Shown here: positions 4,370 through 43,739 of the stretch, piece by piece | Position numbering within the stretch: the first letter of the stretch is position 1 | How the letters are laid out: every line of letters begins with the position of its first letter | Assembly: GCA_964372025.1 (NCBI GenBank) | Contig: CAYJPF010000002.1 | Location: forward strand, 9,999-73,998 | DNA length: 64,000 nucleotides | Direction of reading: 5' to 3' | Source of the DNA: an uncultured Peptococcaceae bacterium | GTDB lineage: Bacteria; Bacillota; Dehalobacteriia; UBA4068 | Notes under the pieces: generated by a model | What the model was told of the DNA's origin: nothing | The model's database searches: none | Seen by the model: the letters and a program-made list of their open reading frames with translations, nothing else | Program-made: the position numbers and the translations under genes

Positions 4370-5290
4370 ATGACTATTGAAAATTTATTAAAAGTATTTA
4401 TAGAAAAACCATATTTAGTAAAAATGGGTAAAGGCTCTTTGAGCAAAAGATTGCGCGCTACTCCGAAAGAAATAATGGCCGCTAAAAAAGCATATTATGC
4501 ACAGTATAGAAAAACTGCTCCTATGCCTAAAATATTAATTCTTGATATAGAGACCGCTCCCCATAAAGCTTTTGTATGAAGACTTTGGAAAGAGAATGTA
4601 GGGCTATCACAAATAATTAGTGATTGGTATATGATCTGCTGGAGTGCTAAGTGGCTTATGGGAGAAACGGTTTTTGGAGAGACTCTTACTCCTAAAGAAG
4701 CAAGAGAACAAAATGATAAACGTATAGTAGAGTCTCTTCGAGAGCTATTAAATTCCGCTGATATTATTATTACTCACAATGGTAAGCGGTTTGATGTCCC
4801 TAAAATAAACACTCGTTTGCTTCTCCACAATTTATCCCCAGTTGCGGGATACCATCACATCGATACGTGTGAAATTGCTCGTAGACAATTTGGCTTCTCT
4901 TCTAATAAATTAGATTTTATAGCTACTTCTTTTGGAATCCCCAATAAATTACATACTACTTTTGAGTTATGGTCTGGCTGTGTTGAAGGAAATAGAGAGT
5001 CTTTAGAAAACATGCTTACTTATAATAAAAGAGATGTGGAAATTCTAGAATCTGTATATCTTAGATTACGACCTTGGATTAAGAATCATCCTAATGTAGC
5101 TTTATATTATGAGAGTGATGAGATGCGCTGTCCTAATTGCGGTGGACAAAATTTAACTGAAGGAAAAATTTACTATACCTCAGTTCAAAAATATATGACA
5201 TACACTTGTGAATGTGGAGCCACTGCTCGTGTTCGTCAATCTATTCCAATTGAAAATGCGGATATATTACTAACAAATAATTTACGTTAA
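4370..5290 (+). CDS. DnaQ-like DEDD 3'-5' exonuclease with a C-terminal Zn-ribbon (one TGA at 4577)
   Basis: Track ORFs 4370-4579 and 4631-5290 share frame 2 and are joined across TGA. Motifs: ILILDIETAP (Exo I), ITHNGKRFDVP (Exo II), YNKRDVEIL (Exo III), CPNCGG…CECG. Confidence 0.7.
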
Positions 5291-16770: not shown

Positions 16771-18437
16771 TGGCTGGTATAAGTGCTTATGATAAGATAG
16801 AGTATGGGGAGTTCAAGCTCCCCTCTCTTCAAGAAATGATGATTGTTCCTGAGTACCTTACTCAGCAGCATGAAATGACTAATGCTGAATTGATTAACAC
16901 TCAATTAGAAGCAGTTAATGTAGGATCATCATTGATACCAGGTATTGATGATGACCTTCTACAACAAACTAATGCTTTTCAACAAAACGTTGATAGCACA
17001 ATAGAAGAATTAGGAAGAACAGGTATTAATTCTACTATAAAAAGTAAGTTAATTGCTGCTAAAAAACAGTATAATACTAACATAGCTCCTATAGGGGTAG
17101 CTGCGCAATCCAGAGAAGCAGCTGCTGCAGAGATAGATGAAGCTCGTATTAAAAATCCAAATTTAATTGCTAAGGATCTTAGATCTATTAGATTATCAGA
17201 TTGAATTTCTAATCCATCTCTCCGTAATCCGGATATGATTGATCTTATGCAGGTGGAAGATAGTGCATATAAAGCTATGGAGCCTTTACAAAATTATGTT
17301 GCCTCCACTGCGCCCGAATTACTTTCAACAGGTCTTTTAGGTAAATATTTTACTAAGGTTCAACAAGGGGCTTCTGTTAATGATATTGCACAATCTATGA
17401 TTATGGATGGCGGGATGGCTCCAGAAAATGCTTCGGAGTTAAGTAAATTAATGCATCTAACTGCACAAAATTTATATGATCTTACTGGAGTAGCTTCTAA
17501 TTATGGTGCACAATCAGAGGCTTCTAACAGAGTATTAGGAATTATTCAAAATGCCTATAATTCAACTATAGGTTCTCCTACTTTTGGAACATTAACTGAC
17601 GAGTGGGCATTAGCAAAAGCGAGGAAAGGTCTAGAAGACTCTGGACAAGATACGCAACAAGGGTATCAATTTTTGACTACTTTGTCTGAACAACGTGATC
17701 CTAATGCTGCGCAAACTTACTCTGAATTATTAGCTCTTCATGCTGACCCAATGGGCACATTCACTACTACTCCCAATAATTCCCCCTCTACCTTTATAGC
17801 AACCGGCATGGGAGGAACTACTATTAAGAATCATGATGAATTAACAGCAAGGTTACGTAAATTAGGATGAGAGGTTACATCAGAGGACGTGCTTAATAAC
17901 ACTCCGTTAGTTCAGCAAGCGATGCAGCATGCACAAACTCAGCTTGCTCAGGCCTCCGAACAACAAGTAGAACTTAATCTTAATTATCCTGATTTTAAGA
18001 GTAATTTTAAAAATATGATAATGCCCAAGGCTTCTACAGGAATGATTAATATTTATAGTTCTACCGAAGATGCTAAAAACGGGACCTCTAAAATTAAGAA
18101 AAAGACCATTGAGGACTTGGCTAAATTAGAGTGATCCAATGATGTCACGGTAGATTTTCAAACTCACGACGGATTATTAGTAATTCGCACACCCGACTCT
18201 GATGATAAATTCTATATTAAACCTGAGGATATTAATACTACTTTAGTTAATACTATGCAAGAGTACAGAGCTCTGCGAGATATGTCGCAAAAAGATTTTT
18301 ACACACATTTAATAAGATTATCTCCTCAACAGGCTGCTTATCAAACAGCACTAAGAAATGATCCACAAGTTATAGGTAATATCATTTTTAATAACCTATC
18401 ATCGGAGAATCAAGGTACTCATTATAAATTAGAATAA
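16770..18437 (+). CDS. late virion protein, 555 aa (TGA at 17202, 17868, 18132)
   Basis: Frame 0 from ATG 16770 (TAATG overlap) through track ORFs 17235, 17889 and 18255 to TAA at 18435-18437. Confidence 0.7.
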
Positions 18438-21400
18438 TGGCAGAATACGATATAACAAAAATCAATGCTGCTCAGAATGAAGCAGATAAGCTTAATAGGG
18501 ATTCTGGATCTATCCAAGGCCTGAAAGGAATAAATACTGTTTCATCTAACGCATTAGATTACATTAGACAAGGACAAAAGGCTGCTCTCTTAGAGCAGTC
18601 TAGTCCGAACACAAGATTTACAGGTGAGAGATATGCGGAAGCTGTAGATTATAACTTTTCAAGATACGATGATTCTTCTGAGAATGTGGCAGATTTAACT
18701 GATATGAATGCAGTTAGGGCGGATGCTCAACCAGGTGTTCTAAAGGCAGGGTCCGCTATTATTGGAGGAGCATTGTCTGGATTAGCTACTGCAGTGGAAA
18801 CTACTGCATACACAACGGACTGGCTAACAGAATTTGCTAGAGCAGATGAAATAGACGAAAGTGTATTTTTACAACTAGCAGAAGCTATGCGCGAAAGTAA
18901 AGCTGCTATATCAAGAGAGATGCCAATATATGAGCGTCCTGGAGATAATGTAGCTGAACAAGTATTTAAATGGAATTCATTAAAAAGTATTATAGATTCA
19001 GCTATAGGATTTGCTATTCCCGGTGGAGCTATTAGTAAAGGCGCAGAAGCAGCCGCTTCTATGTTGGGGGCAGGCGCTAAGGCAGCCATTGCTTCTCAAA
19101 GAACCGCTTACATAATAGATAAGTTCATTACTCCATCCATAGGAGTAGGAGCATCTGCTCTTGCTACTAATTATGGCGAAGGAATGTCTATGGCTATGGC
19201 AGCTAGTGACGAAGTTTCTGAGGAGTATATTAATAATTATGCTGCTCAATATATACAAGCAGCTAAAGAAATGGGGCAACCTATTTCTTTACAAGATGCG
19301 AAAAAATTAGGTGCAGAAGTATTAGCCAATGATGAGAATGCTCAAATGCAATTGGAGTTACTTCAAGAAGACATTGTTAATAGAAATAAAATTATGGCAG
19401 TGTCTAACCTATTTGCTCTTAGAGGAATTATTAAAAATTCTAATTTTAGAAATTCATTATTAAAAAGCCCTACTGCTAAAAAAGCTTGGTTAGAGCAGTT
19501 TAATAAACTTAGCTCGGCTAATCCTATTCTTCAAGCTGCTACAGAAGGTCTTGAAGAAGGCACTCAGGCAGTCATGACTGAAGATGCTACTTTTGAGACT
19601 CGTAAGAAATTAGGATTTACATCTAATCTAGAGGAAGAGATTCCAGTAGATCTATGGGATAGGGTAGTAAAATATGCTGCTAGTAAAGATGTTTTGACAG
19701 AAGCTATCATAGGATTTGCATCAGGTCCTTTACAAAGTGCTGGCGCAAAATTAACCAGTAACGTTCTTTCAGGAGATCCTCTATCTAAGAAGTACGGAGA
19801 ACAATATGCGCAAGAGTATTCTACACAACAAGCTTGGGAAAGTCCTGTAGAAGAGGATGTGCGCAAGATAGCGCAAGGCATTATGTTGAAAGATTTGGCG
19901 GATGCTACTAATGATACTATAGCTTCTAATAAAATGCAGCGAGAGATGTTTGTGAATACTTACAAAAAAGCTGCTACCGAAGGACGTGCTCCATTATTCG
20001 TATCTCTAATGGAAGACGTTGAGCAAGCTACATCAGATCCCACCGAAAGAAATAGAATTAGTGATCTTCGTAAGTTAGCGGAAGCTGCTGAAAATAAGTT
20101 ATTATTTTCGATAGGAGACAAAGAAACAGGCGGACTACGGTTCGATAATGAGTTAGATAAACTTATTCATAGAGCAACTTTAGATGATATTCAAACTGCT
20201 CTCCAAGAAGTACCTTCTGAAATTAATGAGGAAATTAAAGACTCCGGAGAAACTGCATCATTAACTATTAATAAGGGCGAGGCTTTTTATGAAATTAAAC
20301 AGGGGGATAACACAAAGTCTCCAGATGTATCACCGGAGCTAAAAGCAAAGATAGTCGATTATACACAACGTTATGCTGATACTTATAGCGAGTTACAGGA
20401 AGCTAAGCAGGTAAGTAAAGACTTAAATAGTCCCACAAAGAGAAAGGCTATCAAAGAAGCTAAAAGACAAGCAGCCGCTAAAAAAGCTTATGAGGATTTT
20501 AAAAAATCTGCAGAACCTATGGTGGATGCAGACGTAACGTATTCAGACGCACCTGATAAAAAGGTTAAAGTTGTTAATGATGGGGGAGTCCTATATCTAA
20601 GAGAGTTTGACGAAGATTCTCAAGCATATATTACCCCACTGGTAACTAACTCTAAGGACGAAGAGTTACCCATGACCCAAGCCCAATTAGATAAGCTAAC
20701 CTTGACTCTTACTGCACCCCCTAGTTCTACTATACCTGTAGAAGAAGCAGCGGTATCAGAGGCAGTTACCCCTCCAATAGAACCTATTGCAGAACCTGTG
20801 ACTCCTTCTGCAGAGGCCTCTACACAAATTTTAGAGACCCCTTTGGAAAATCTCTATAGTGCTGTAGAGCAGGAACTAGGCAATACTCCGGTGGAGAGAA
20901 TAATTTCACAATTATCGGATAGAATAATCTTTGAATATAATTCATTATTAGAAACTAATCCTACTGAAGAGCAAATTAAGAATTTCTTTAACGCTATTGG
21001 AGGACAGTTGAATAATTTCCCAATGCTTCAGCAAGTACTCTCCCAATCAGACGATTTTCTTAATGTTTGGACTATTCTAAATACGAGTGCGGCAGAATTT
21101 AAGTCTTCAGGCACGTTACCTACAGTAAGTTTGCCTACAATTGCTAATGCTGCCCTTAGAGATAAATTAGAATCTATTAAAGAGGCATCTGCCACTACTA
21201 TAGCTGAGGAGGTCTCTAAGATTGATAGAGAGGAGTTAACTCCTGTAGAGGAGCAAGCTGTAGATGAAGCCATTCAACAAGCTGTTGAAACCATAGTGGA
21301 AGAAGCTGGGGATACTACTAATGAGACTGAGGAAACTGTAGATACTTTAACAGAGGCTATTTCTGAAGTAGATAGTACTACAGCAAAACAACTTATAGAC

Positions 21401-24400
21401 GGAGTTAATGATATAATAACTAAAGTTCCTTATACATTTACTACTCCGAAAGAAGTTAGGAATGAGTGGCAATTAATTTGGGATGCGGCTAATCAACTTC
21501 CCGTAATTCCTGAGAAGTCTATACAAGCATTATTAAACCAATTCGCTGATTTTTATAAAGGAATTATCGCTATGAATGAAGCTGATAGTTCTAAGGAAAA
21601 ATTAGTTACAGAGATTCGCGATTCTATATATGCATTAGTGGAAACTAAGAAAGGTAATTCTGCCCAACATATATCAGCAATAATGACGGAAGAGAATTAC
21701 CCGATGGAAATTGTATCAGCATTTTATAAAGAAACTTACGGCGAAAATACTTATAGAGGCACTAAAGGCAAGGCTCGAACAAATCCTACTATTGCATGGT
21801 ATGGCTCAAGAGGAGTAGAATATGATAGAAACGAGGTACGCATCACTGTCCCTAATTTAATAAGATGGTATGATTTCTTAAATTCCGGAGAGGCCCTTAA
21901 TTACAAAGGGGAGTTAAGTCCTATGATCTTTGAAGGAAAAACTGCCGTACGCATAGCTATCGTGGATGGAAATGGAAAATACCTTACTTCTGACGGTATT
22001 GTAGATACATTCTCTGAAGACACTTGTATTTGGTCTACTATGCCCGATATCACTAGTAATTCAGCTATAAAAGAAGATACTCAGGAGGTAGGTAAGGATT
22101 ATAAAGATAAAATCTGAGATCCTATAGCAGGCAAAGGAAATATTTTAACTGTGGAATTCTCAATGTTGACTGGAGGAGTACTTGATCTTAATAATAAATT
22201 TATTAATAACTCTGAGGTTCGTCCCCTAGGGGAAGCGTTCGCAGAAGGATCTACCATAATTGTTCCTCCCAATACGTCTTCTCCCAAAGAGTTTGATTTA
22301 AAGGTAGCCACACAAGATAATTTTGCGGCTGGAGAAGAAATACTAGCGGTGAAAAGGGGTCAATACATTCTATCTACTAAAGATAGACACTTTGTGGCAA
22401 ATACTGTTTTACCTAATGAGGATGACATTGACTTATTAGCACTAGCTTTGACTGACTTTTTAACAGGACGAGACACATTTAGAGACGCTGGTAATAAACT
22501 CACTTCTGCAGACGTACTAAAACATTTTATGCGTATTTTACCTATTGAATATACTACAGTAAAAGACGCTAAAAGAATAGCTGCTGTTAAAATATACATC
22601 AATGATGCTAGAAATCCAGTAGATAGATTTATTTCGATTAATAACGTAGATTATAGGGGAGACGCAGGAATAGAAGCTATTAAAGCCGCTTTGCCCACTA
22701 TGTATTATAATATACAAAGCCGATCTCTTAAAAGTACTAGTAAAATTGTTGTTCCAGAATTACACATAGATGGAGGGTTGGGTAACAAAACTTACAATAA
22801 TTTTAAAGAATTTGCTATAGATAAATTAGTAGGATTTAAAAATGCTAGCTTTGATGGAACTATTTCTAAAAATAAAAGATTAGTAGTAGATCCCAAATCA
22901 ATCCAATCCACGATAGTAAGCGAAGAAGCTGCAGAAGAAGTAGTAGAAACCGTTGATGAGTTAAACACTATGTTTTTTAAACGTAAATTAAACATTATTA
23001 ACGGCGTAGAAGATTTTGATAAAGCTAAAAAATGGTTTGAGAGTAAATTCCCAGGAATAGAGTATAGAGTTATCGCATCAGCAATGTCTTCTGGAGAATT
23101 CGGATCATTTGTGGATAATATAGTTACTGTATATGATAATGCAGAACGTGGTACAACGTATCACGAGGCGTTTCACGTAGTAATGAAGCATTATTTATCT
23201 CCCTCAGAAAGATTTAATCTACTTAATAAAGTTGCGGAATCTAAGGAATTCAAGGAAGTTAAAAAAGAATTATCTGCTATATATCCAGAATTAAAAGAAC
23301 AAGCACTTGTTGAGGAATATATTGCAAATCGATTCCAAGACTACATGCTTGAGCAAGAAGAATTGCCTAAGAAATCTTTATTTAAAAAGTTCTTTGACGG
23401 ATTAAAGAAATTCATAGAGAGTCTTAGAAATATATTATCTAAAAAATCTGGTAAACAAGATTTAGATAAATTATTTAAGCATATTAATTCAAATTCTTTT
23501 AAATTTATAAAATCAGCTTATCAGAATTATGATTATGTAGTATATAATAAAATAAAAAATCTTAATGCTGTTCAAACAAAAGACGCTTTAAATAGTATTC
23601 ATTTGTTTTTTATGAGTAATTTTAAACAGAATAGTAAAAGTTTCTTAGAGATATTGACAGCGGATAACGCGAAGCTAGTTGATGAAAGCTATGCTCACGC
23701 TAAAAACTTATTTATACGATACTCAAAGGCTTTTGAGAAGCAATTTAATGATTTAGCTGCCCAGTATCAACAAAATCCTTCCGAAGAAAATGATTTACGT
23801 ATGGGGGAGGCAGGAGATAAATGGTCTGTAATTGAATATGTTTTAGACACCTGGGATTCTCCCGATGGAATTGTGCAAAAACATAAGCAATATATTTTAC
23901 CTAGATATTCTTTATCCTCAGATACTATTCTTTTAGAGGAAGAGGTTGATGATGTAGATTCTGAAGACTCTCCAGGAGGAAAAGTAGTGGGAGATTATTT
24001 CCACGACTCACTTACTTATAGTGCTAAATTAAATGCAAATCGTTCGATCAAATTACTTCTTAGTGGACTACCTAAAAGAGTTGTAGGGCCGGGTAAACAA
24101 GTTCAGTTAGAGTTGAACTCACTCGGGCTGCCTCAACTAGAATCTTTTGGAACTATTTTTAATGCACTAGTCAATAAACTGGCTAATCTAACTGGAGATA
24201 TCAGTGCACAAGAATTATATGATAAACTAAATTCTATTGCTAAAGATTTTCCTACTATTATACCACTTATTCAAGATAGTGGAGATGGAGGAAGAGCGTG
24301 GTTAAATCTAAAAGAAGGAGAAAGTTGGTCTAAAGATGATACATTGTTGTTCACGCAATTTATGCAGTCTTTCACTAAGAATAGAAATGATTTCTATATT

Positions 24401-27400
24401 GCTAAGATGGGTAAAGGAAATGCTTCAACACAATTTAGTGCATCGAGGCATAGTAGTTATGGTAAACTTAGAACTAAGTGGGCACAAGCATTATCAGGCA
24501 AAATACTTAATGGAAATGCTACTATAAGTAAGTATTACATTAATAATGGAGGCAAAATTTCTTACAATAAAGAAGCATTTATTGCAAACTTTGCAACTGT
24601 GGCTAACGGGCGAATTGTATCTAACTTAGACTACGATAATCTATGAAGTGCTATGCGAGCGTTAGGAGTAGAAGAGGCGTATTTCCGAGAGAACCAAGAG
24701 GCACTGCATCGTAAAACTAATGCGATACTTGGACAAATTATGTCATCCTCATACTTTCCACCAATTCTAAGTGGGGACACAGAGACTCTAAATGTTTATT
24801 TTGATTCAGTCATAGATAATAAAATAGATTTTACTGAGAATAGTCATATTAATTTGGAGGACAAGATGATCTATGATGCAACATTACATAGTCATTTAAC
24901 AAAAACTATCTCGCAATTAATGCGGGTAACTACTCCTAATAGTGTAGAAGAGATATATGAAGTGATGCCCTGGCTTAATCCAGAGCACTGTGCTTACGTA
25001 ACTAATTCAAAGTGGTTAAAAGGTCTTCAAGAAGGCACTGTGACCAAGTTACATATGACTATATTGGAAGGTTCTAAAGAGACAGCTTCTGGAGTAGGCG
25101 TGCCATTTGATAAACTAAAGCCTGTTGATAAAGTAATCACTGTGCTTAATAGTATTCAATCTGGAATGTATCAATTAATGCGTCCTGCAGACAATGCTTC
25201 AGAAAGATTTATCAAAGTAGAAGGAGAGTTATTAGTACCTATTACTGCAGATAAGTCGGTGACTATATCTTTATTTAAGAATTATTTAATTGACGAATTA
25301 AATCGTACTCAAGAGGATAATACTGGGTATATTAATTTAGATAAAAATTCTAAAGAAGGATTTATTCTATCGGAATTATTAACCAAAGATCAACTATCAT
25401 ATTACGAAAATGAGTGGAAAAACTCGGGATCTCCACAAAATTTTGGGGAATGGGTAACATCTATGTACTCTGACGTTATTAGCAATAATATCTTGACATA
25501 TCTCAATAAACGAGTTAAAAGATTATTAAACTATCTTTCTGATAATAAAGTAATTTTTATATCAGGAGACCAAGTAGCTATTCGCGGATTACGTACTCCT
25601 AAAGCTACAATGGCTATGGGAGATTTTACTAGATGGTTGTTTAATACTGAGGCAAATTGAATGGCTGGGTTTATAGAGCAATCTAAATTATTCTTTGGTG
25701 ATCCAGCATATTATAAATCTCTTGCAGACGAGTTTAAACGACACTCTGGTGCAGTTGGTCCTAAAAAATATGCTAATACTTCTATTGAAGCTAATGTTGC
25801 TATACAAAAGCATTATAAGCGATTATTAGATGGAGCAGGCAATCTCATGGATAAAATCACGGGAACTAAACCTATTTATCGAACTGCTATATTTAACGAT
25901 GTTATGACTTACTCACAACAAATTGTATATATAGCGGATACTCTAGATAAAGATAATGCAGCCTACCAAAAAGCTAAAGCAAATAAAACTGACGACGCTT
26001 TGATAGAATGGATTATTTCTAATGCTAAGAAAGAAGGTTTAAAAAGTGCTGCGTACTTAGACATGACTGAAGGAGACGGATTCGGATATATATCCCTAGA
26101 TGCATATCGTGATTTAAAAGTTCGAGTAGGAGATTGGTCTGATGACGCTGAGAAACTATATCAATGGGAAGTATATGAATATAATAATACTCCTAAAAAG
26201 GACCGTACATACACAAATTCTTCGGGAGTAACAACATCGTTAAGATACGGAGATTGGGGAAAACAGGTATTTCATTCACTAAAGCCTCAATACTTTGGCC
26301 CTATGGCAGAGGTAGGATTTAGAACTACCATGTATAAAACTTCTTTGATGCCCTTATTGCCAAGTGTTATAAAGGGGAGAAACTTAGAGGCATTACATAA
26401 ACACATGGTGGATAATCAAGTAAGTATACTTACTCACTACTCTGCTAATAAAGGCGTTACTACTAAAACTAAGAATATAGACGGAGTTAATACTACTAAC
26501 TCATTCTATGATGTGCAAGGAAACTTTGGTATTCAAAATGGGTATTACTTGGGGGATCCTGGAGAATTCTTAACGCAGGATACTTATGTAGAAAACTGGG
26601 GTATTCAGGTAGACACAGGTGAGAAATCACACACTGATGTTATTACTGGTACTCAGATGATGGTGCATATTCTTAATGGCTTATTTGATGGAGGATCTAT
26701 TGCAGACGATGTTACTAAATCTCCTGAGGAAAAAGCATATATTCAAGATAGAGTAGATGAATATTTTGCTCTAAATAATGAACGCATTTCTTTAGGAGTA
26801 GAGAGGCTGAAGGATATATTAGGAGTAGATATAACAGGTTCTGAATATTCGTTCTCAAGAGAGGGAGTGGAGAAATTATTGGATATGCTCACTAATGACG
26901 CTATTACTCAAGACATGCCTGATAATTATTTTGAGGCGATTAATATTTTGAAAAAGCAGTCTCCAGAGAATGTTAAGTTAGACTTGCTTCCTAATAAAGA
27001 GGCTTTTGAAAGTACTTTATTGAGCATTGCTTCTAAGAATACTATCAAACAAAAGCGTAAAGGATTTGCAGCGCTTCAAGTAGCTGCTACTATGTGGGAA
27101 TCCGGTAGTCGTAAGAAGATAGGTGGGATGTTAGCAGGATCAGATCTTAAATTTGTAGTATCAACTTCTAAAGAGGGAGTTAGAACTTCTTCTATGGAAG
27201 TATATATACCAGATATTTATAAAGGCAAAATTAAGATAGGTGATGCAATAGACTCAAGATTACTCCAACTGATAGGATTTCGTATTCCTACACAGGGTTT
27301 ATCTTCTATTGATTCTATTATTGTTAAAGACTTCCTTCCTAAAGAAGCCGGTGATATTATAGTTCTTCCGACAGAAATTGTGGCAAAAGCAGGTTCTGAC

Positions 27401-29680
27401 TTCGATGCGGATAAAATGTATTTATATACTCCAAATTGGTTCTTCGATAAAGATGGTAATGTGGCTTATGTAGATTATGCTAATTGAGAAACACAATTTG
27501 AACAATTGTTATCTACAGATAGTAAAATTACTAGGGAAGAGTTTAAACAAATGGCTATTGAGAATAGGCTAGCTGAGATTCAGCAAGATTTAATTACTTT
27601 ACCGGGCAATACTTCAAATCTTATTGCTCCAGTGTCTTCAGATGTACTTGAGGACGCTGCTACAAAAGCAATGATAGCAGTGCATGGCGAAGATAATTAT
27701 GAGTCTTCTGCTGAATATTACAAGTCCAAATCACCGTTCTCAGCTATGACTGATCTTATTTATACTTCGGAAGTATCTGAAAATTATATGGCAGGTAAAG
27801 CTGAAGTAGGTATTACAGCATCTCAAGGTAAAATGGGAGTATACTGCTCTATCTTTGATTTAGGAGTAGTGTTATCGGAGAATGTCCCATCAAGAATAGC
27901 AGGAGTTCCCCAGGAGTCTTTGCCATTTAAAATAAATTTAGATGGAACTACTATTAAATTGGGTAATAAGTGAGATAATAGGGATAAGTATCCTATTGCT
28001 GAGATTATGAATCAGCTGATTACTATGGCGGTAGACGCTGCTAAGAGTCCTTTTGGTACTAACTTAGGAGCAGATCCTTCTACAGTAGGCATTCATACTA
28101 TGATGGCAATGGCAGGCGGAGATATGGAGCAACTAGCGTTATTTATGAATCAACCTATTATTAGGGAGTATCGTAAATTACAACAATTGCACGAGTCTCA
28201 AATGGCTCAAGAAAATTTTAGTTCCCCATTTGATCAACAGGCTGCTAATAAAGAGACTCGTTTGACTAAAGAGGGAATCGTTAAAAAATTAATGATTAAA
28301 TATGGTGCCAGCGAGAGTGGAGGTAAATTATCTGCGCCTATCACATTAAATCTAACTAATGAAAAACTATTAGACGGATTTAGCAAAGACGCTAAAGAGG
28401 CAATTAAGTATCAACCATTTATTCTGGATACATTCCTCAGATTATTAGACTACTCTAAAATTTTAGGAAAAGCTACTCAAGGAGCTACTTGGGATACGAA
28501 AGGAGGTGGCAAAACTTTATCAGAGACGCAAATTAAGCTACTTACTACTCAAGAGATTCTTGATAGTGGCGTGGTGACTAATTATGGTAAATTAGTAAAT
28601 TCTGGATACATTGCTCCATATAAAGAGGCTGCTGCAACTACGTTTAATATTTATAAAAATTTATTTGTAACATCTTCAGATGAATTACTTTCTGACTATA
28701 TTCTTAAATACGTTATGAGAAGACCTGGATCTACAGGAGACACTGTTAAACGTATGAATAAGTTAAAGAATGCAATATTAACTGCATTAGCATTAAACAC
28801 AGCTAATTCTAACGAAGTATATTTACGAGATAGACAAGAAGAATTGATGTTCGGGATCAATAATATCCCTACTTGGATTATGTCATTGAGGAATGATCCT
28901 AAATATTCAGGGAATGCATTGCTGTCACAATTAGTTCCAATACTATCTACAGGAGGAGAGTCTGATTTTAATTCTTTGAAGTTATTTGCAGACAAGGATA
29001 CTTTATCACAAAATGCTATTACGGAAGCATGGAGAGAACTACAAGTTATTTTTGGTAATAATAAAATGGATGATTTAATGGCGTTTGCCTTACTTCAATC
29101 GGGATTATCTCCTTCCCCACTAAATTTCTCAAAAATAATTCCTGCGGATAGATATTATAATATGCTTATGCCACTTATTCAGGGTGGTATAAATTCTGGT
29201 GTACATGCGGATATCCTTTATAATAATTTCGAGGTGGCAGTAGAATTAGCTTATTATAATGACCCTTTGTTTACGTCTAATCGTAAGTCTCCTATTACTA
29301 GCCTAAAGAAAGTATTTAATAAGGAGACGGGCCTCAATAATATTGTATATATGCCTCCTAAGGCGGATAATAAGCAGCCTGCTAATATATTTATTGATGC
29401 GGTGACTCATATAGATTATGCAAGAAATAAATCTTATGCATACTTTAATTATGCTCCTGGTAGTAAATTAATTGCTGCTCTAAATAAGTATAAGGAAGCC
29501 TTTGTTGAGGAAGTAAAAAGTACTCCTACGCAGGATGGCTCTACAAACAGTTCTTCTGTAGACCAAACTTCTTCTGAATTAACAGCAATTATTCAGGCGG
29601 ATCAAGTTACTTCTGAGGAGAAGGTGGAAAATAACGCACTAAATCCAGATAGCTCTATAGCTGAACAAAAATGTAAATAA
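18437..29680 (+). CDS. giant virion protein, 3747 aa; candidate virion-packaged RNA polymerase (two-barrel type)
   Basis: Six track ORFs (18437, 22151, 24653, 25661, 27506, 28007) are all in frame 2 and separated only by TGA, at 22115, 24644, 25658, 27485 and 27971. The stop is TAA at 29678-29680. It contains SDFDADKM (27398-27418), which resembles the universal beta-prime NADFDGDQM catalytic motif. There is an HEAFH zincin-like motif, and a Pro/Glu/Thr-rich linker near 20.7-20.8 kb. Confidence 0.65.
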
Positions 29681-29681
29681 T

Positions 29682-32600
29682 ATGAAATGTCCAAATGTAA
29701 AATCTACAGAGTGGAAAACTTTAGTAGATAGATTTGGAGAAAGCATTGCATGGTCGTTGTACGACGTGGTTGGGGATGTCCCCAACCTCCGTACAGCGTT
29801 ATCCATAGTAAAAGACAATGGTATCTCCTACTCTACATTATCTACAGAAAAATTACAATCATTGGGCGTGATTGATTCTTTAGGTAATATTAAAGTATTC
29901 ACTAATAAAACAAGTGTAGATAATAAAGTTGAAGAATTACGCAACTCAAATCGTAGACTACGGGTAGTGGCTAAGAAATTATCTTCTAAGGATAATTCAT
30001 ATACTATTGATGTAGCAGAGATTAAAACATCTCAAGAGATATTTAAAGCTACTCCCAAAATTAAAACTCCTACTAAATCTTCTACTATTTTAAATAGTGA
30101 AGATGCTGTAAAAGAGTTAGAAAAAACTATTGTAAAATGGTTAGATAATGTTGGAGTTAGTTATGAGAAAGTCTCTGAAATTAAAGATGCTTCTGGAAAT
30201 CCTATAAATGCCCTGGGAATAGCAGATATGCTTCAGAAAGTTATCAGGGTAGTGGAAGGTAAGGCTACAGTAGAGACGCTGTCAGAAGAGGCTGCACACA
30301 TGTTTGTGAGGATGCTGCCTAAGAATCACCCATTATATCAAAGAATGGCTAATTTAGCTGTTAATAGTGCTACTTATCAGTCTGTAAAGGATGAGTACTC
30401 TTCTATGTACGATTCTGAAGAAGCATTTGTTGAGGAGACTATAGGTAAGCTTATTGCCCAAGAGATTAGTAATGTTTGAGATAGTAACTCATCTAAATAT
30501 ATAGAGGAAACTTCTGAAGTCAAAGGGGGGGTAGCCAACCTATTTAATAGATTAGCTACTTGGTTTAATAATCTCTTGAATAAATTAGGATTATCTTCTG
30601 AGAAATTGCAAGAGCAAACTTCTCCATTTATAATGGCTGCAGATCAAATCTTATCCACTCAGACTACTGGATTAGATACTCTTAGGCAAGATGGGCAAAC
30701 TGTATTTTATAGTATGCCTCAAGATGCATTTGCCAACCGAGAGGAAATATTGGATTATCTAAATACTGTTCCTATCACATATGACTCTACTGGACAAGTA
30801 TATAGACATAATAATGGCAATGTAGTATCTAGGCGTGTCTCAGATATTCTTGATAGATTTTATAAAATTAAATTTAAATTCTTTAAAGAACGCCCTACTT
30901 CTCAGAAGAACACTTTATCTCTACATAAAGGATCTGCGATACATAAATACGCAGAGCTTATTATGAATGAGCTATTAGATGGAAATGATTCTCCGTCATA
31001 TAGTGCGATTACTTCTAAAGTATTAGTAGCATTTGATGATATAGAAGCAGGTGCAGAATCAGTGTTTAGATTAGATCCCCAACATTTTGAAATAATTGCT
31101 AACGGAGTTAAAAATATCTTTGCCGCTATTCAAAAGAATCAAGATCTTATTAATGAACAAACAGGCAATGTAGATGGAACTGTGTCTATAATGACTGAGC
31201 ACATGATTTATGATGAAAAGAGGGATTTGGCAGGAACAGTAGATGTATTGTGTGTATACTCCAATGGAACCATTGGTATATATGATTATAAGACTCATAA
31301 TTTTGTAACCAATGAGCAGGGAGAAGTACTAAGTACTATCTCACAGTCAAAAAGAGATATGTGGGGGGCACAAATTACTCAATATAAGAATATTATTACA
31401 GATTCCATTGTTAGAAATTCTAAAGCTAAAGGTAAAGTTGTTAAAGTTAGATTTGCAGAAACGCGTATGTTGCCTGTAAACATTCAATTTAACCCGTCTT
31501 TATTGAGGATAAAAGGTATGCCCTATAGTCCTGTAGGATTGGCATCATTAGAATTCCAAGATTACTCTAAAAGCTATCTTATGGATGTACCTGTAGCTGA
31601 AGAGCTTTCACACGTAGATTCTCTTAATAATAGTTTAATTAAACTATATAGTCTATTAAAAGCTCAGAAGAAAAAGTACTCACAAGAAAAAACTATAGCT
31701 AATAAAAATAAGCTTCTCCAAACTCAAAAACTCATTGATACTTATTTAGTACAAAAGGATTACTATTATTCTATAATGGAAATTAAGAATATCGACACTG
31801 AATTTCGAAAGAATGTACTTATTCATAGGGATAGTGGGGTAGGACTAACTGCGGAGAAATTAAATGATTATCGCACTCGCGTAGAAACATTGCTAGACTT
31901 TATGACTGCAATTGATACTACCATTCCTGAGGATTCTCCTGTACGCAAAGATATCCATGAAGCCGTAGGTTTGGGAGCTAGTCTTATAAACTCTATAAGT
32001 GAGAGCGCTGTGGATTTACTCAGAGAAATTACTGGCGTTGACATATCAGTAAGTGGAGAAAAGATGGGCTTTGTAGATAATGAGCTTACTGCTTTATTTG
32101 AGCAAAAAGGCCAATCTTTTAGAGCATTAAATAATTTAATCTCCGGAGTGATTAATAATACCCAAGCTGACTATAAAGAGTTTGGGGAGCAATTAACTAA
32201 ATATCACAATGAGTTATTAGAATGAGCCAAATCTAAAAATATTAATCTTCAAGATGCTTTTAATAAAATTATAGACACTTCTAGAGGATCGCTAATCAAT
32301 AGATTTAATAAAGATTTTTACGATCATCTTGCTACCATTCGAGGTAAGAAAAACTACGAGGCTGATCCGCAATTATTAAAATTATTCCAATTGACTATTA
32401 ATGCTGACACAGGATTTTATGAATATACAGATGACGCTTTAATAGACTACAATGATGCTGTTGCTAAATGGGAGAAGCAGCTAACTGATTCTACAGGAAC
32501 CCGTTTGGAGGAAGAGACTCGCACCGCTTATAAGTTATGGGATCTAGAGAATAATCCTAAATGGGCTTCAGCTCGTCTTTCTCCTAAGAATAAGTTTATG

Positions 32601-34763
32601 AGAGACAAGTATATTAGGGACGATGCTGTGATAGAGGCAGGATGAATGAATCCTGTGTATAAAGAGATTATTTCTGAGAAACCACTATTAAATTATTACA
32701 ATTTTTATGTGCGTTTTAACAGAATGGCAGAGTTACTAACGGGTTCTTCCATCTCATATAAATTTATTCCTAATATGCGCAAGACTCTTGTGGAAGGATT
32801 GCTCAACAATGGTGTGTCTGCATTTGGCAAAATGAGGTCTTTCACATTAGAAGCACTAGAGACTACTGCACAAGATGATGTGGTTTATAAGTTGAGTGAT
32901 GAGGAACAAGCACTAGATGCCCAAAATAAGCCTATTAAGAAGATTCCTGTGCATTTCGTAGACCCATTGAAAGATAGGCTCACTAAGGCAGAAGAAGAGG
33001 AAATTAAGGCCTCTATTACGGCAGAGCCTGGCAGTGCTGAATATAACGCAATATTTAATGCTAAAAAATTAGACTTAGCTAAACGTAAATTTAATGAGGA
33101 CTCTAAGTCGTACGATCTTAGTTATTTGTTAATGAAGATGGCAGAATCTGTGTACTCTTATAAACATACTAAGCAAGTAGAAGCTGCAGCACAGTTATTA
33201 TTAGCCACTGCTAAGACTGATAAAGTTAGTACTACCTTGGAGAAGAATAAAAATCCTTATATTGATGAATGGCGAGGAAGATTAAAATTCCATCTTGGAA
33301 TATCTTCAGAAGAGATTAGTGCTTTAGAAAGATCTATCAATCTCTATATCTATAAACAGCGCATTCAGAACGATACTACTTTTACAATAGGCGGCAAAGA
33401 ATATTCTACTGCTAAAGCAGTCACATCATTTATTAATTCTGCTACTATTGCTACATTAGGATTTTCCCCAATAACTGCGGCGGCAGCAGGTATTCAAAAT
33501 GCTATAAATGCTAGATTATTGGCTGTAGAGGGAAGGTACTATGATAAACAAGCTTGGAAGAAGGGCAATAAACTAAAGAAGCAAAATCCTAAAGTTTATC
33601 ATGCTTTACAAGAGTTATTAGGAGTGTCTAACATTGGATATTATCACGAAACTAGTATGCAATTTGCTGCCAATAAGATGAAAAAAATTATTTCAGGTGA
33701 TACCACTATGACTATGGTTAAAGGAGCGGATGATAGTGCGGATAGAGCCACTTTAGCAGCATTGGTACATTCTTGGGGATGAGATTCTTCAACAAATAAA
33801 ATAGTTAGTTTGCAAAAAAATCCTTCTGCTACTCCAATAGTAGACTTAATCTCTATAGATTCTAATGGAAAGCCCGTGTTAGAGGGCGTTACTCAGAAGG
33901 AGTTAAGTAGATTTAAACAGATTGTAGCCAAAGTAGGAATGGCGGTTAAAGGTACTATTCCTTCGGAATATGCTTATTTAGGAACTACTACTATAGCTGG
34001 TAGAGGATTAGCCCATTATAAATCGTGGATTCCAGGAGCTGTTAAAACTAGGTATAAAAAATTAGCGTATGACGCAGTTACAGAAGAATTTGATGACGGT
34101 AGATTACGAGTAATGTTCTCAGACTTAGTAGGAAGCACTGAGTATATGATTAAAGGATTCAGAAACGCAATTATACGGTCTTTGCCTATAATTGGTTATG
34201 TGTTCAGTGATAAACTAGGCACTAATGAAAAATACGCTCGTAAATTATATGAAGAGTATTTTGCAATGCGCCCTGATTTAAATGAAGCAGATTTTACTTT
34301 TGAGCAATTTATTGACATGCGTCTTAAAAAGTTAAAAGCTGCGGGTACTGAGATTCAATCTACTATATTATTCTTTCTAATAGCCCTAATGCTTAAAGCA
34401 ATGGCACCAGACGAAGATGAAGATGCTGTAGCAATTTTAGCTCATCAAAATCTATATAGATTACTGTATAAGAGCTATGTGGAGTTATCTTTCTTCACTA
34501 ATCCTCTTAGTATTAGTGAAATCTTAGAATCTCCCTTTCCCGCTATTAGTACTCTCAATAATATAATTCGAGCTATGAATAATACTTTAGATGAAAGTAG
34601 GGACATAGTGTTTGGAGAAGATTACAAAGGTAGTTTAATATGGGAGGAAGACAAAGACGATACCTCTCCTATAGGTAAATATTCTACAAAACTTATTCCT
34701 GGAGTAAACGCTGCTCTCGGTGTATTGGATGTATATGATACATTCTCTTATAATAATAGATAG
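29682..34763 (+). CDS. giant late protein, 1693 aa, with an internal RecB/Cas4-like PD-(D/E)XK nuclease domain
   Basis: Track ORFs 29682, 30576, 32391, 32646 and 33810 are all in frame 0 and joined across TGA at 30477, 32223, 32643 and 33780. The stop is TAG at 34761-34763. Nuclease motifs: GSAIHKYAE, MIYDEKRDLAGTVDVLCVY, IYDYKTH and GAQITQYKNI (QxxxY). Confidence 0.65.
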
Positions 34764-39490: not shown

Positions 39491-42400
39491 TTATTGCAAC
39501 AATAATGTTGCACATAAAGAAGTTCCACAAGATTTACAAATCTTACAGCCTCCTTCCGAATGTAGTTTTTCACCACATTCTGGACAAGTAGCATGAGTTT
39601 CTTTCTCATACTTAGATAGTATTCTACAAATAGCGGAGGTAAAAGAAGTTACTAATGGATTAATTTTCTCATTAGTTTTAATAATTTCTTTTACGGGTGC
39701 GCCATGGCGTAATAGCATAGAAGTTAGTATAGAACTCATTCGCTCCTCATTCAATTCATTTGCCAATTGCAAATTAGGGATGACTAAGCCTGATTCTCCA
39801 ATAAATTTATAATGTCCTTTCTTTAACTTAATTACTTTCCCCGGACCCTCTGCAATAGGGTCTTCTCCTAATTTAAACGCAAATGTTTCGTATGGACGCC
39901 CTGCGTACAATCCCACAACTAATGCATAAGGGACTTTTTTAATAGACACTAAATGCAAATTGGCTTGTAATTCTTTAGGACGTTTTGGCGGCAATGACTC
40001 TTTAAAATCAGCGGGCTTATCTTCTTTAGTGACTAAGATTCCTGACCGCGACCCTTCTCTGTACACAGTAACCCCCTTTAGATTATGCTCCCAAGCCTTC
40101 ATATAAATAGTACTAATCTCCTCTACAGTAGTGCTTTCCGGTAAATTTATAGTACTGGAGATACTATGTGTTGTTCCCGATTGAACCGCTGATTGGGAGA
40201 TAATTCTATCAATAGGACGTATCTCTGGAGCAGTATTACCATAATAAACACTTTCTTTTACTATTTCATCTAATTCTTTAGTGGCCATCGAAGATAATTG
40301 AGCATACGCCTCTGCAATTGATAATTGTCGCTTAACTGCGTACTCTTTAATAACTCCCGGATGGATGACATTAAATTCTACAAAGGGTTCTCCATTAGGA
40401 TCTATATATGTAGGAATATCATCTGAACTAGCACGCTTTCGTCTAGTGTAATATAAGGAAAATACGGGTTCTATACCCGAAGAACATTGGGCGAGCAAAC
40501 TAATTGTTCCTGTTGGAGCTACTGTAGAAAAACTAATATTACGACGGGCTGAATCTACTGACCCCGGGCTTGTCCCAGTTATTAGACTGATGTGTCCTCG
40601 ATTTTCGTAATCAGGGTTGAACGCGGGAAATACTCCTCGCTCTTTACCTAATTTTTTAGATTCTTCGTACTCTGCCTTAAACTTATTTGTAGAAATTTCG
40701 TCCATTAGCATAACAGCTACTTCTGAACCATATTTTATACCTAATTGAGCAAACATATCTGCCCATCCTGTAGTACCTATACCACATCTACGCCCTTGTT
40801 GCGCAGTTTTCCGTACCTTTATCCATAGTTCGTGCTCTTTAGTCTTCTCCTCCACATTGGCGATAATAGTATCAATCGCTTCTATCTCAAGATCTATAAA
40901 ATTATCAGCTAATCGCATAGCTTTTGCACACAGAGCCATAAACTTCGTCATATTAAAAGATGCTTCCGAAGTATATGGAGCACTTACGCAATTACTTAGA
41001 TTAATATGTAATAATCTACATGCATCGTAAGGAGATAAGGGAATTTCTCCGCAATTATGCGCCACCATATTATTTACAATTAAACAATTGGTTCCCGGTA
41101 CTTGAATATCATATACATCGGTTTGTTCACCTTCCTCGATAGCAACTATTGCATTTTCAAATCTATTTTTAAATTTAGTAGCTAGATGCTCTGGAAGAGA
41201 ACTTGTATTTTTCCATGCAGGGGGATTGCCATTCGGAATAAATTTACCCTGCTCATCTCTACATTGATGTGTTTGAGGATTTTGAGTAGTAGCCGTAACA
41301 TAAGAATGTTCAGAGTGAGAAATACTTGAAAGGTTATTTATATTATTATTAAAAGTATCTCCATCTAAATGGTGTATATCCATATTAATAATATTTCCAT
41401 GAACTGCTTCGTACACTAACCTATGCTCCATCACATACTCTCTGTTCCCCTCAGTAGTTAATTTCACTCCTGCATAACGTCTTCCTCTACGACTGCGTAA
41501 AATATGAGCAATCCTATCACCTAATACTAAATTTCTAGCTTCGATAAATCCTTTGTTATGCACATACATTTTATGATCAGGAGTAACAGTAATACTCTCT
41601 CCTGTTCGTAATGTGATTTTTAAAGTTTTAGCATTCTTTTTAGTTAAAAATGCAGCGGAGGATTTTACTACGCATAATTTATTATTAGCATCCATGCTAT
41701 ACACATACGTAGGTTTTGTAATGTCAGCTATTCTTATCCTGCCCTCCACTGTCTCTACCAATGAGTCCGGGTGAAAGCAGGGATTAGTCGAGATCGGCCT
41801 AAATTCGGGATAGTTCCCATCCAAAGAATTTTCTAAAATAGTGTTCCAAAATAAAATCCCGGGCTCTGCGGAAGCATGTGCTGCTTGCATCATCTTATTC
41901 CAGATTTCTTGGGGATTTACTTTTTTAATATAAAAATGAGTAGAGGTGTTCGGTTGAATTAGCTCTACCCCCTCTTTATAATACTCATCGTACAATTTTT
42001 TTAGTTGTTCTTGGTCATACGTAGACGTAGTAGGAAATTTGAGATAATACTCAGTATTACCGTATTTAACAGCTTCCATAAATTCGTCAGACACCTTTAC
42101 TGAAATATTTGCACCAGTTATCTTAGATAAATCTTGTTTACTTAGGATAAACTCTAATATATCAGGATGATTGCCGTCCATAGTAATCATCAATGCTCCT
42201 CTACGTCCGTCTTGCGCAACTTCTTTTGTGCATGCAGAATCTACTTCCATGAATGAAGTAGCTCCAGAAGAAGTTTTTGCCACATTATTAACTTTTGAGC
42301 CCCTTGGGCGAAGGTGAGAAATATCTTTTCCAACGCCACCGCGTCGCTTCATAAGCTGTATTTGCTCTTCTCTACTACGCATGATTGCCTCGTAAGAATC

Positions 42401-42694
42401 CTTATTATCGCCAATTACAAAGCAGTTGCTCAACGATCCTATATGCTCAGTATTTCCTATTCCGGCTAATCCAGATCCTCCCGGAATAATATATTTAAAA
42501 TCTTTTAAAAGATTATAGATATCTTCCTCTGATAACTCGGGAGATGGATAAGATTGCTCAATTCTAGCGAATTCTTTTGCAATCCTTTTGTGCATATCAT
42601 CTGGAGTAATATCCGTAGATAATGCGTATTTTTCTGACCACACCTTAGCAGCCATTTCGTCGCCATGAAAATAAGACAATAATTTAGAATTCAT
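39491..42694 (-). CDS. nrdJ: class II (B12-dependent) ribonucleotide reductase NrdJ, interrupted by an intein
   Basis: MNSKLLSYFHGDEMAAKVW start. The extein motif STNPC|GEIPLSPYDACRLLHINL is split by the intein. There is a C-terminal Cys-rich Zn-ribbon. No TGA occurs in ~1067 codons. The track start at 42793 adds a spurious 33 aa. Confidence 0.85.
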   Translation of the reverse strand: MNSKLLSYFHGDEMAAKVWSEKYALSTDITPDDMHKRIAKEFARIEQSYPSPELSEEDIYNLLKDFKYIIPGGSGLAGIGNTEHIGSLSNCFVIGDNKDSYEAIMRSREEQIQLMKRRGGVGKDISHLRPRGSKVNNVAKTSSGATSFMEVDSACTKEVAQDGRRGALMITMDGNHPDILEFILSKQDLSKITGANISVKVSDEFMEAVKYGNTEYYLKFPTTSTYDQEQLKKLYDEYYKEGVELIQPNTSTHFYIKKVNPQEIWNKMMQAAHASAEPGILFWNTILENSLDGNYPEFRPISTNPCFHPDSLVETVEGRIRIADITKPTYVYSMDANNKLCVVKSSAAFLTKKNAKTLKITLRTGESITVTPDHKMYVHNKGFIEARNLVLGDRIAHILRSRRGRRYAGVKLTTEGNREYVMEHRLVYEAVHGNIINMDIHHLDGDTFNNNINNLSSISHSEHSYVTATTQNPQTHQCRDEQGKFIPNGNPPAWKNTSSLPEHLATKFKNRFENAIVAIEEGEQTDVYDIQVPGTNCLIVNNMVAHNCGEIPLSPYDACRLLHINLSNCVSAPYTSEASFNMTKFMALCAKAMRLADNFIDLEIEAIDTIIANVEEKTKEHELWIKVRKTAQQGRRCGIGTTGWADMFAQLGIKYGSEVAVMLMDEISTNKFKAEYEESKKLGKERGVFPAFNPDYENRGHISLITGTSPGSVDSARRNISFSTVAPTGTISLLAQCSSGIEPVFSLYYTRRKRASSDDIPTYIDPNGEPFVEFNVIHPGVIKEYAVKRQLSIAEAYAQLSSMATKELDEIVKESVYYGNTAPEIRPIDRIISQSAVQSGTTHSISSTINLPESTTVEEISTIYMKAWEHNLKGVTVYREGSRSGILVTKEDKPADFKESLPPKRPKELQANLHLVSIKKVPYALVVGLYAGRPYETFAFKLGEDPIAEGPGKVIKLKKGHYKFIGESGLVIPNLQLANELNEERMSSILTSMLLRHGAPVKEIIKTNEKINPLVTSFTSAICRILSKYEKETHATCPECGEKLHSEGGCKICKSCGTSLCATLLLQ
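41054..41779 (-). mobile_element. intein (242 aa) with an HNH endonuclease domain, inserted at the RNR catalytic NPC|GEI site
   Basis: Begins with Cys (CFHPDSLVETVEG…) and ends …NNMVAHN, followed by the +1 Cys. The internal HNH motif is HHLDGDTFNNNINNL…SHSEH. Confidence 0.8.
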
Positions 42695-43739
42695 GTAGTA
42701 ACTTTTTAATGTCGATCTCTCGCTCCCCTTTACAAGTAAACGTAGTTCGAGAGTAGGTAAATATGTCATTATCAAAATGCCATTTAGCATCATCTAATAA
42801 CATCTTTCAGTCTTTAAATCCGTGCTCTAAAAGCATTTGTTCGTTAGGATCAGTTATATTAAGCCCGTCTATTTGTAATGGATATTTCCATATAATAGGA
42901 GTTCTTGTAAATTTATTAATTACAATAAATTTAAATGGCAAAATAGTAAAATCTTTGTAATACTCATCACTAGAAAGTATATGTGCTAATATATATGTAT
43001 ACATATTCGCCTGAATATAATAATTCCAATGTAACACAGAGTCTTCAAATTTTTCCTCGGCCTTTCCAGTAGTCTTTAGATCAATAGGCTGAACAGTTTT
43101 GTTGTAATGATCCACAATAATTCTATCGAACATACATCTAATTAATGTCCCGTTATAATCTAGACTAAATTTTAACTGATTTAATCCTTCGGAATCATCG
43201 TCCAACTCGGTGAAATATTTTTTAGTAAACTCCGAATTAAATAATGTTTCAACGCAGGCTTTTGCTACGTCAAACTCTTCTTTAGAAATTAGCGTCTTAT
43301 CTTTAGTTTGTTGAAGTAGGTGGAAATAATGACTATGCTCAGCTAATTTTGATAACTTAGTAGCGTCTCTTCATGTAGGGCCATAATTAAATTCTACGCA
43401 TGCTTCCAGCTTAATTTCGTCTGGTAAAAATGTAAAAGATTTTACATCTGAGTACAAGGTAAATAAGTATTGTATGATTTTAGAAATTGCTGGAGGAGGC
43501 ATTACAAAAGATTGTATAAAAAATCTTTCGTCCAATAGCTCTGGCTCTGTCACTAGGCAATCTACTAAGGACCCAAATCTAAGTGCGTCCGACTCTTCTA
43601 TTTTAGAAGAAATAAGGCATTTTGGAGTGCCCTCCCTTAGAAAAGAGGACAACGTAGAATAAGAAAATCCTCCTAACTGCCTATATTCTGATTCCGTAAT
43701 AGGTAGACTAATCTTCTGTAGTGACTTCTTCATAACCAT
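42684..43739 (-). CDS. PD-(D/E)XK family nuclease (RecB/YqaJ-like exonuclease), ~351 aa, TGA at 43371 and 42807
   Basis: Track ORFs 43371-43739 and 42807-43205 are in one frame and joined across TGA. The motifs are …GSLVDC… and PIDLKTTGK, the D…(D/E)xK pattern. Ends at TAA 42684-42686, overlapping the RNR start. Confidence 0.55.

Follow-up and report, generated by a model that had tools for sequence, protein, structure and literature searches.

A RecB-family nuclease domain in a predicted virion cargo protein encoded beside the RNA polymerase of a Crassvirales phage

No phages are more abundant in the human gut than the Crassvirales. Two of them, crAss001 and phi14:2, offer the closest described counterparts of the protein considered here, a 1693-amino-acid (aa) RNA-polymerase-associated cargo protein encoded directly downstream of a virion RNA polymerase (vRNAP) gene. 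Its gene lies at 29682..34763 (forward strand, as do all features below unless stated) in a 64-kb stretch of contig CAYJPF010000002.1, hereafter the window, which originates from a Crassvirales phage whose nearest GenBank relative is cr108_1 (Steigviridae, Asinivirinae, Pipoluvirus). The virions of crAss001 contain gp47, gp49 and gp50, as detected by mass spectrometry (PMC10172136), and gp65-67 were detected in virions of phi14:2 (NC_021806 annotation; bioRxiv 10.1101/2020.03.07.982082). Yutin et al. 2021 (PMC7886860) assign a PDDEXK domain to a large transcription-block protein of some crAss-like phages. A 2023 review (PMC10136315) restates this and calls the function unclear, and several such proteins are already labelled in UniProt. 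A nuclease domain in a crassvirus cargo protein is already known, and the window protein is a divergent further member of this group.

The cargo protein carries a RecB-family PD-(D/E)XK nuclease domain at aa ~345-650 (30714..31631), with a core at aa 408-600 (nt 30903-31481). An earlier note, made from the DNA sequence alone, had read the full signature in five sequence motifs, and all five lie at the positions it gave: GSAIHKYAE at aa 417 (nt 30930), MIYDEKRD at aa 508, VDVLCVY at aa 520, IYDYKTH at aa 533 and AQITQYKNI at aa 563. The signature is indeed present, with one amendment: the catalytic Asp is D521 in GTVDVL, and the Asp of MIYDEKRD is not invariant. Conservation was judged in the 155 best representatives of the domain, each less than 50% identical to the others. 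The motif I His, H421 (30942..30944), lies on the first core helix and is predicted to bind metal; we take it to be the equivalent of RecB H956, and it occurs in 152 of 153 representatives. The motif II Asp, D521 (GTVD, 31242..31244), is present in all 154, and both the Asp and the Lys of the motif III D-x-K (D535-Y-K537, 31284..31292) are present in all 155. The RecB-family motif IV, Q564-x-x-x-Y568 (31371..31385), sits on the helix after the strands and keeps its Gln in 151 and its Tyr in 153 of about 155. E425 of the motif I region is less conserved (Glu in 96 representatives and Gln in 31). The catalytic residues on which the earlier reading depended are confirmed as conserved in relatives.

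A composite of these motifs (H...E / G..D / [DE].K / Q...Y) matches once in all six-frame open reading frames (ORFs) of the window (38,711 aa), at the domain, and its mean number of chance matches is 0.01 over 200 residue shuffles. General profiles give fainter signals. PHROG 298 'exonuclease' matches the cargo protein at E 2e-5, Pfam PDDEXK_1 matches the domain at E 0.006 and 17 bits, under the 22-bit cut-off, and Pfam with the full-length cargo protein as query gives no match. PDDEXK_1 matches four of eight family members, the best at E 3.8e-6. PDB sequence searches with the protein and three family profiles returned chance-level matches only, such as the PBCV-1 capping enzyme (E 0.3-0.8 over ~30 residues) and a sialyltransferase (E 0.023, with the profile of the N-terminal domain). 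The PBCV-1 mRNA capping enzyme (1ckm) weakly resembles the strand hairpin GT(I/V)D...G..GI(Y/F)D (window 31200-31290, aa ~507-535), which we judge to be chance.

An AlphaFold2 (AF2) model of the domain shows an alpha-beta-beta-beta-alpha-beta core in which the motif II Asp and motif III lie on adjacent strands. This PD-(D/E)XK core comes with a strong fold match, and the proposed fold assignment holds. Sequence profiles are only weak for the single protein, and we regard the identity of the domain as settled because the structure model and the conservation agree. Residues ~345-650 very probably form an active RecB-family nuclease domain. The Pfam score under the curated cut-off and the lack of a sequence-level PDB match could point to a catalytically dead structural or DNA-binding module, or to a chance motif match; six catalytic positions that are near-invariant in diverged representatives, the strong fold match and the low chance expectation of the motif argue against both. 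An inactive module is very unlikely because the active site is conserved. Searched against 1.84 billion cluster representatives, the domain profile finds 1983 proteins at E<=1e-3 and 288 at E<=1e-30. Nearly all of the best 150 of these 1983 matches are 1300-6100 aa long, and in these 150, gene fragments aside, the domain never stands by itself: it is part of a cargo protein or of a fusion with the vRNAP.

The nearest folds of the domain model are end-dependent processing nucleases and not restriction-type endonucleases. The nuclease domains of RecB, AddA, AdnA, Exo5, Dna2, MGME1 and RecE form the RecB-like branch of the PD-(D/E)XK superfamily and are only 10-14% identical to the domain. Unlike RecB-type nucleases, the protein has no helicase partner in the polypeptide and no iron-sulfur (Fe-S) cluster, and the domain is embedded in what is predicted to be a phage virion protein. 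The first description of the domain as RecB/Cas4-like stands in its RecB part; the likeness to Cas4 exists only at the level of the superfamily, as there is a single Cys in the domain and no Fe-S motif. Cas4 has a four-cysteine Fe-S motif; the domain, with one Cys at aa 335-650, a total of two in the full-length protein and no conserved Cys column, is ruled out as a member. The context rejects it as well: there is no CRISPR-cas module, and the gene belongs to the late/transcription block of a Crassvirales phage beside the vRNAP gene.

The cargo gene begins 1 nt past the end of the gene for a 3747-aa vRNAP (18437..29680). This polymerase contains GSDFDADK (aa 2985-2992, with DFDAD at nt 27398-27412), the catalytic DFDxD motif found in the two-barrel virion RNA polymerase of crassviruses. 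The arrangement recurs in L003 and L004, two distant relatives with long contigs, where a giant gene with PSEI..KAGSDFDIDK ends just upstream of the nuclease-bearing gene. In six of the 155 representatives, a single polypeptide carries both the nuclease module and the polymerase motif. As in phi14:2, where the gene order is g067, g066 (polymerase) and g065, the cargo gene is located downstream of the vRNAP gene in the direction of transcription.

In crAss001 gp49 (E 1.2e-71), a full-length family profile built from 41 sequences picks up the N-terminal domain and the C-terminal ~1000 residues. In a 1372-aa 'RNA-polymerase subunit' of Kolpuevirus (E 3.5e-39) it picks up the N-terminal domain and the C-terminal ~550 residues, and in phi14:2 gp65 (E 2.7e-22) the C-terminal region only. 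The matches to gp49 and to the Kolpuevirus protein leave out the nuclease positions (~335-645 in the case of gp49). Because of these profile matches and the g067-g066-g065 gene order of phi14:2, the cargo protein is, on sequence grounds, the counterpart of phi14:2 gp65 and crAss001 gp49. Gp49 shares with the cargo protein a homologous N-terminal domain, and both gp49 and gp65 share its C-terminal ~1000 residues; unlike the cargo protein, those two have no nuclease domain. The earlier suggestion of a probable virion or ejected protein gains support through this orthology to proteins detected in virions. We consider it probable that the cargo protein is packed in the capsid and ejected with the vRNAP.

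The organization of the polymerase gene itself varies between the window and its relatives. The 3747-aa ORF apparently joins a gp47/gp67-like N-terminal part to a gp50/gp66-like polymerase part; crAss001 gp47 matches aa 1555-1638 of this ORF and Kolpuevirus gp50 matches aa 2861-3244. The cr108_1 phage splits the same content over two ORFs. It also carries a group I intron (Rfam RF00028, 80 bits, E 1e-20; L001 17265-17583) exactly at the DFDxD motif of its vRNAP gene. Unlike in cr108_1, the window gene is unbroken at this site (27398-27412).

Homologous nuclease domains occur at aa ~1693-1876 of crAss001 gp47 and at aa ~1878-2127 of a 2241-aa 'RNA-polymerase subunit' of Kolpuevirus 'frurule'. 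Matches of the family profile have E 1e-15 to 3e-16 for the Kolpuevirus domain and E 6e-10 for crAss001 gp47, and AG(T/E)xD, D-x-K and Q-x-x-x-Y are kept in both. These proteins share with the window protein the gene block and the association with virion cargo. In the gp47 type the domain is placed at the C-terminal end; here, it lies between the N-terminal domain and the C-terminal region of a gp49/gp65-type protein. The Kolpuevirus domain as a tblastn query finds 45 GenBank crassvirus records, including DAC15, DAC17, IAS virus and crAss001-like isolates, and most of the annotated hits fall under 'RNA-polymerase subunit' genes. Among 50,697 GenBank phage records searched by tblastn with the family consensus, cr108_1 is the only match, and it shares the gp49-type placement. 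In every locus examined, the transcription block holds a single copy of the domain. None was found in gp65-67 of phi14:2 or in its 40.9-90 kb stretch. Four of these features are absent from the literature passages that treat the domain and appear to be new here: the alternation of its placement between gp47-type and gp49/gp65-type cargo proteins, the single copy per transcription block, the occasional fusion to the polymerase and the near-invariant active site.

We propose that in this lineage the nuclease domain was inserted between the N-terminal domain and the ~1000-residue C-terminal region of the cargo protein, and that the protein would leave the particle together with the DNA and the vRNAP. 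The predicted chemistry is metal-dependent phosphodiester hydrolysis. Family precedent suggests H421, D521 and D535 as metal ligands, K537 as the residue that activates water, and Q564 and Y568 as those that position the substrate. Within the ejected complex, the nuclease could then remove one strand of the phage genome by resection from the entering end and leave a single-stranded DNA template for the vRNAP. Resection could also yield recombinogenic ends.

The biochemistry of phi14:2 and the genome layout of crAss001 give this proposal circumstantial support. In vitro, the phi14:2 vRNAP is efficient on single-stranded and denatured DNA and weak on double-stranded DNA (bioRxiv 10.1101/2020.03.07.982082), and the early transcripts of phi14:2 share no upstream motif. 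The early genes of crAss001 are located at the right end of its genome map (PMC8375218). They all point inward, the orientation in which 5'-to-3' resection from the right end would expose the template strand. The nearest folds, being end-processing enzymes, also count as circumstantial support for end resection. As a full explanation, a co-ejected nuclease working on the ends of incoming phage DNA is tentatively preferred, with a chance that we place somewhat below even. Action of the domain on the phage's own incoming DNA end is possible, at a similar or slightly lower level. It is rather unlikely that the nuclease is the missing factor that lets the vRNAP start on double-stranded DNA, with the 5'-ended strand resected and the exposed 3'-ended strand transcribed without a sequence-specific promoter.

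Several points weigh against action on the incoming phage DNA. We know of no member of the domain family with a known activity, substrate or polarity. To our knowledge, phi14:2 is the only crassvirus with a characterised vRNAP, yet it has no detectable domain in the proteins and the stretch named above. Resection by this domain can therefore be no universal need of the polymerase. The detection in virions by mass spectrometry concerns orthologs only, from other phages and with other architectures, and the literature arrives at ejection by inference. The crAss001 record is annotated as circular, and its 'right end' may not be a physical end. Finally, the domain switches between two different cargo proteins and some lineages lack it, a pattern that fits an accessory effector equally well.

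Such an effector would be injected at the start of infection and attack host or competitor nucleic acid (the chromosome, plasmids, prophages or the DNA of defence systems), for host shut-off or anti-defence. The patchy distribution and the shuffling of the domain between gp47-like and gp49-like proteins are what one would expect of an accessory weapon. Precedents are the polyvalent proteins (Iyer et al. 2017, PMC5512222), which are packed in virions and unite zincin-like peptidases and enzymes that target nucleic acids in one multidomain protein; some are fused to N4-like vRNAPs. In this comparison, the cargo protein has two recognisable modules, one of which is only tentatively zincin-like, and its packaging is itself a prediction. 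The end-dependent nature of the closest folds speaks against an effector, as a circular host chromosome offers no ends and the folds are not of the restriction type. Moreover, there are presumably few copies per particle, Pfam found no helicase or targeting domains in the cargo protein, and the available passages of the crAss001 literature report no degradation of host DNA by crAss001 virion proteins. We consider the effector possible, with some doubt.

Two further roles seem improbable to a similar degree. By analogy with PD-(D/E)XK nucleases that belong to RNA-handling machinery, the domain could act on RNA beside the vRNAP and process or degrade transcripts; it might, for example, trim 5' ends, release RNA from RNA-DNA hybrids or attack host mRNA. 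Alternatively, the nuclease could work late inside the producing cell, where it might serve to recombine DNA, process concatemers or mature the cargo complex, and its packaging would be incidental. The position of the gene in the late block is consistent with this. Several PD-(D/E)XK nucleases with presumably different roles also occur in crAss-like phages (PMC7886860), and the window has a second one at 42684-43739. The nuclease of the replication block already covers recombination, though, and is unrelated in sequence, and the domain is never free among its best 150 relatives, as described above, which argues against a late intracellular role.

Outside the nuclease, the cargo protein has an N-terminal helical domain at aa ~140-330 (30099..30671) with an invariant EEAAH (aa 202-206). 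This domain also occurs in crAss001 gp49 and the Kolpuevirus 1372-aa protein, and it was modelled through a 31%-identical homolog (P0001). It is possibly a degenerate zincin-like, lethal-factor-like domain, and the zincin-like assignment is tentative. The window family, crAss001 gp49 and Kolpuevirus have EExxH, unlike phi14:2 gp65, which has the canonical HExxH (HEIMH) and is called zincin-like in the literature (bioRxiv 10.1101/2020.03.07.982082). Pfam with the N-terminal domain as query returned noise only. The extreme N-terminus of the protein (aa 1-20, window 29682-29740) has the pattern M-x-C-x-N-x-x-x-P-x-[WF]-K, which is common to four of seven aligned homologs that are 20-22% identical overall and may be a packaging or processing signal.

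The C-terminal region spans aa 651-1693 (31632..34760) and is kept in crAss001 gp49 and phi14:2 gp65, as seen in phmmer coverage across relatives and in the family profile. A Kyte-Doolittle scan finds a single strongly hydrophobic segment in the protein, aa 1553-1577 (34338..34412), possibly a helix that interacts with membranes. An acidic cluster, PDEDED, comes next, and this pattern is kept in seven aligned homologs.

The combination of a possibly zincin-like domain with a very large helical module that travels with an ejected polymerase, one that needs a single-stranded template in vitro, is analogous to the C-terminal domain of the N4 vRNAP. The latter consists of a zincin-motif subdomain and a large helical subdomain (PMC13434306). 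The same paper makes no mention of a nuclease, which sets the N4 protein apart from the window protein. Homology to the N4 gp50 C-terminal domain is not detectable (hmmsearch E > 0.04, hhalign probability 0.3%).

The earlier note had read the cargo gene through four TGA codons as one giant gene, and this is borne out. The frame at 29682-34763 has exactly four internal stops, each of them TGA, and terminates in TAG (34761-34763). The uninterrupted 1714-aa homolog of cr108_1 aligns in one piece to aa 3-1693 of the cargo protein with 36% identity. The TGA columns were judged in a 41-sequence alignment (40 homologs), in which the background frequency of Trp is 1%. The second TGA (aa 848, 32223..32225) corresponds to Trp, with W in 32 of the 40 homologs. 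At the third (aa 988, 32643..32645), 14 of 40 have W, 12 have Y and 3 have F. The first (aa 266, 30477..30479) lies in a variable column, and the fourth (aa 1367, 33780..33782) falls in a column of I, V or L. We accept read-through because of the uninterrupted cr108_1 homolog and the Trp in aligned TGA columns; from this sequence comparison, 29682-34763 is a single gene and reading through TGA is justified. Translation of TGA as Gly (code 25) is ruled out, as Gly is present in none of the aligned TGA columns.

On both strands of the window, TGA serves as a sense codon for Trp. In-frame TGA and TGG codons number 37 versus 85 in the forward-strand late ORFs and 16 versus 109 in the reverse-strand ORFs. 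The list of window ORFs includes zero that terminate in TGA, but that list itself counted TGA as a sense codon. No suppressor tRNA was found in the 64-kb window, nor any other tRNA gene. Standard gene calling fragments the cargo gene where its TGA codons occur, and the fragment with the nuclease is public as an unannotated 549-aa metagenome protein (P0009). Because P0009 is 99.8% identical to aa 299-847 (window 30576-32222), a near-identical phage is already in the databases.

The window encodes further nucleases and an intein. The second PD-(D/E)XK nuclease belongs to the replication block (42684-43739, reverse strand), matches Pfam DUF3799 at E 7e-12 and has two in-frame TGA codons. Its product is 54% identical to a 'PD-(D/E)XK superfamily exonuclease' of cr108_1. 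Paralogy of the two window nucleases by recent internal duplication is ruled out, as they have no detectable similarity (hhalign probability 0.2%). Within an 1100-aa ribonucleotide reductase ORF (39491-42793, reverse strand) lies an intein that contains an HNH endonuclease (Pfam Intein_splicing at aa 353-580, HNH_3 at aa 457-497), and the ribonucleotide reductase gene of cr108_1 is annotated as two pieces that flank a separate ORF. The structural gene block includes an ORF for an HNH endonuclease (557-1099; PHROG 59, E 7e-54) and one for a DnaQ-like 'DNA polymerase exonuclease subunit' (4370-5290; PHROG 403, E 1e-89).

The domain is present in cultured phages (crAss001 gp47, Kolpuevirus, DAC15 and DAC17), and the proposal is therefore testable now. 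A nuclease that is encoded beside the polymerase, fused to it or co-packaged with it would be a candidate for a missing step, namely how a particle-borne polymerase starts on incoming double-stranded DNA. If true, this would be early transcription coupled to end resection, a mode that has been described for no phage.

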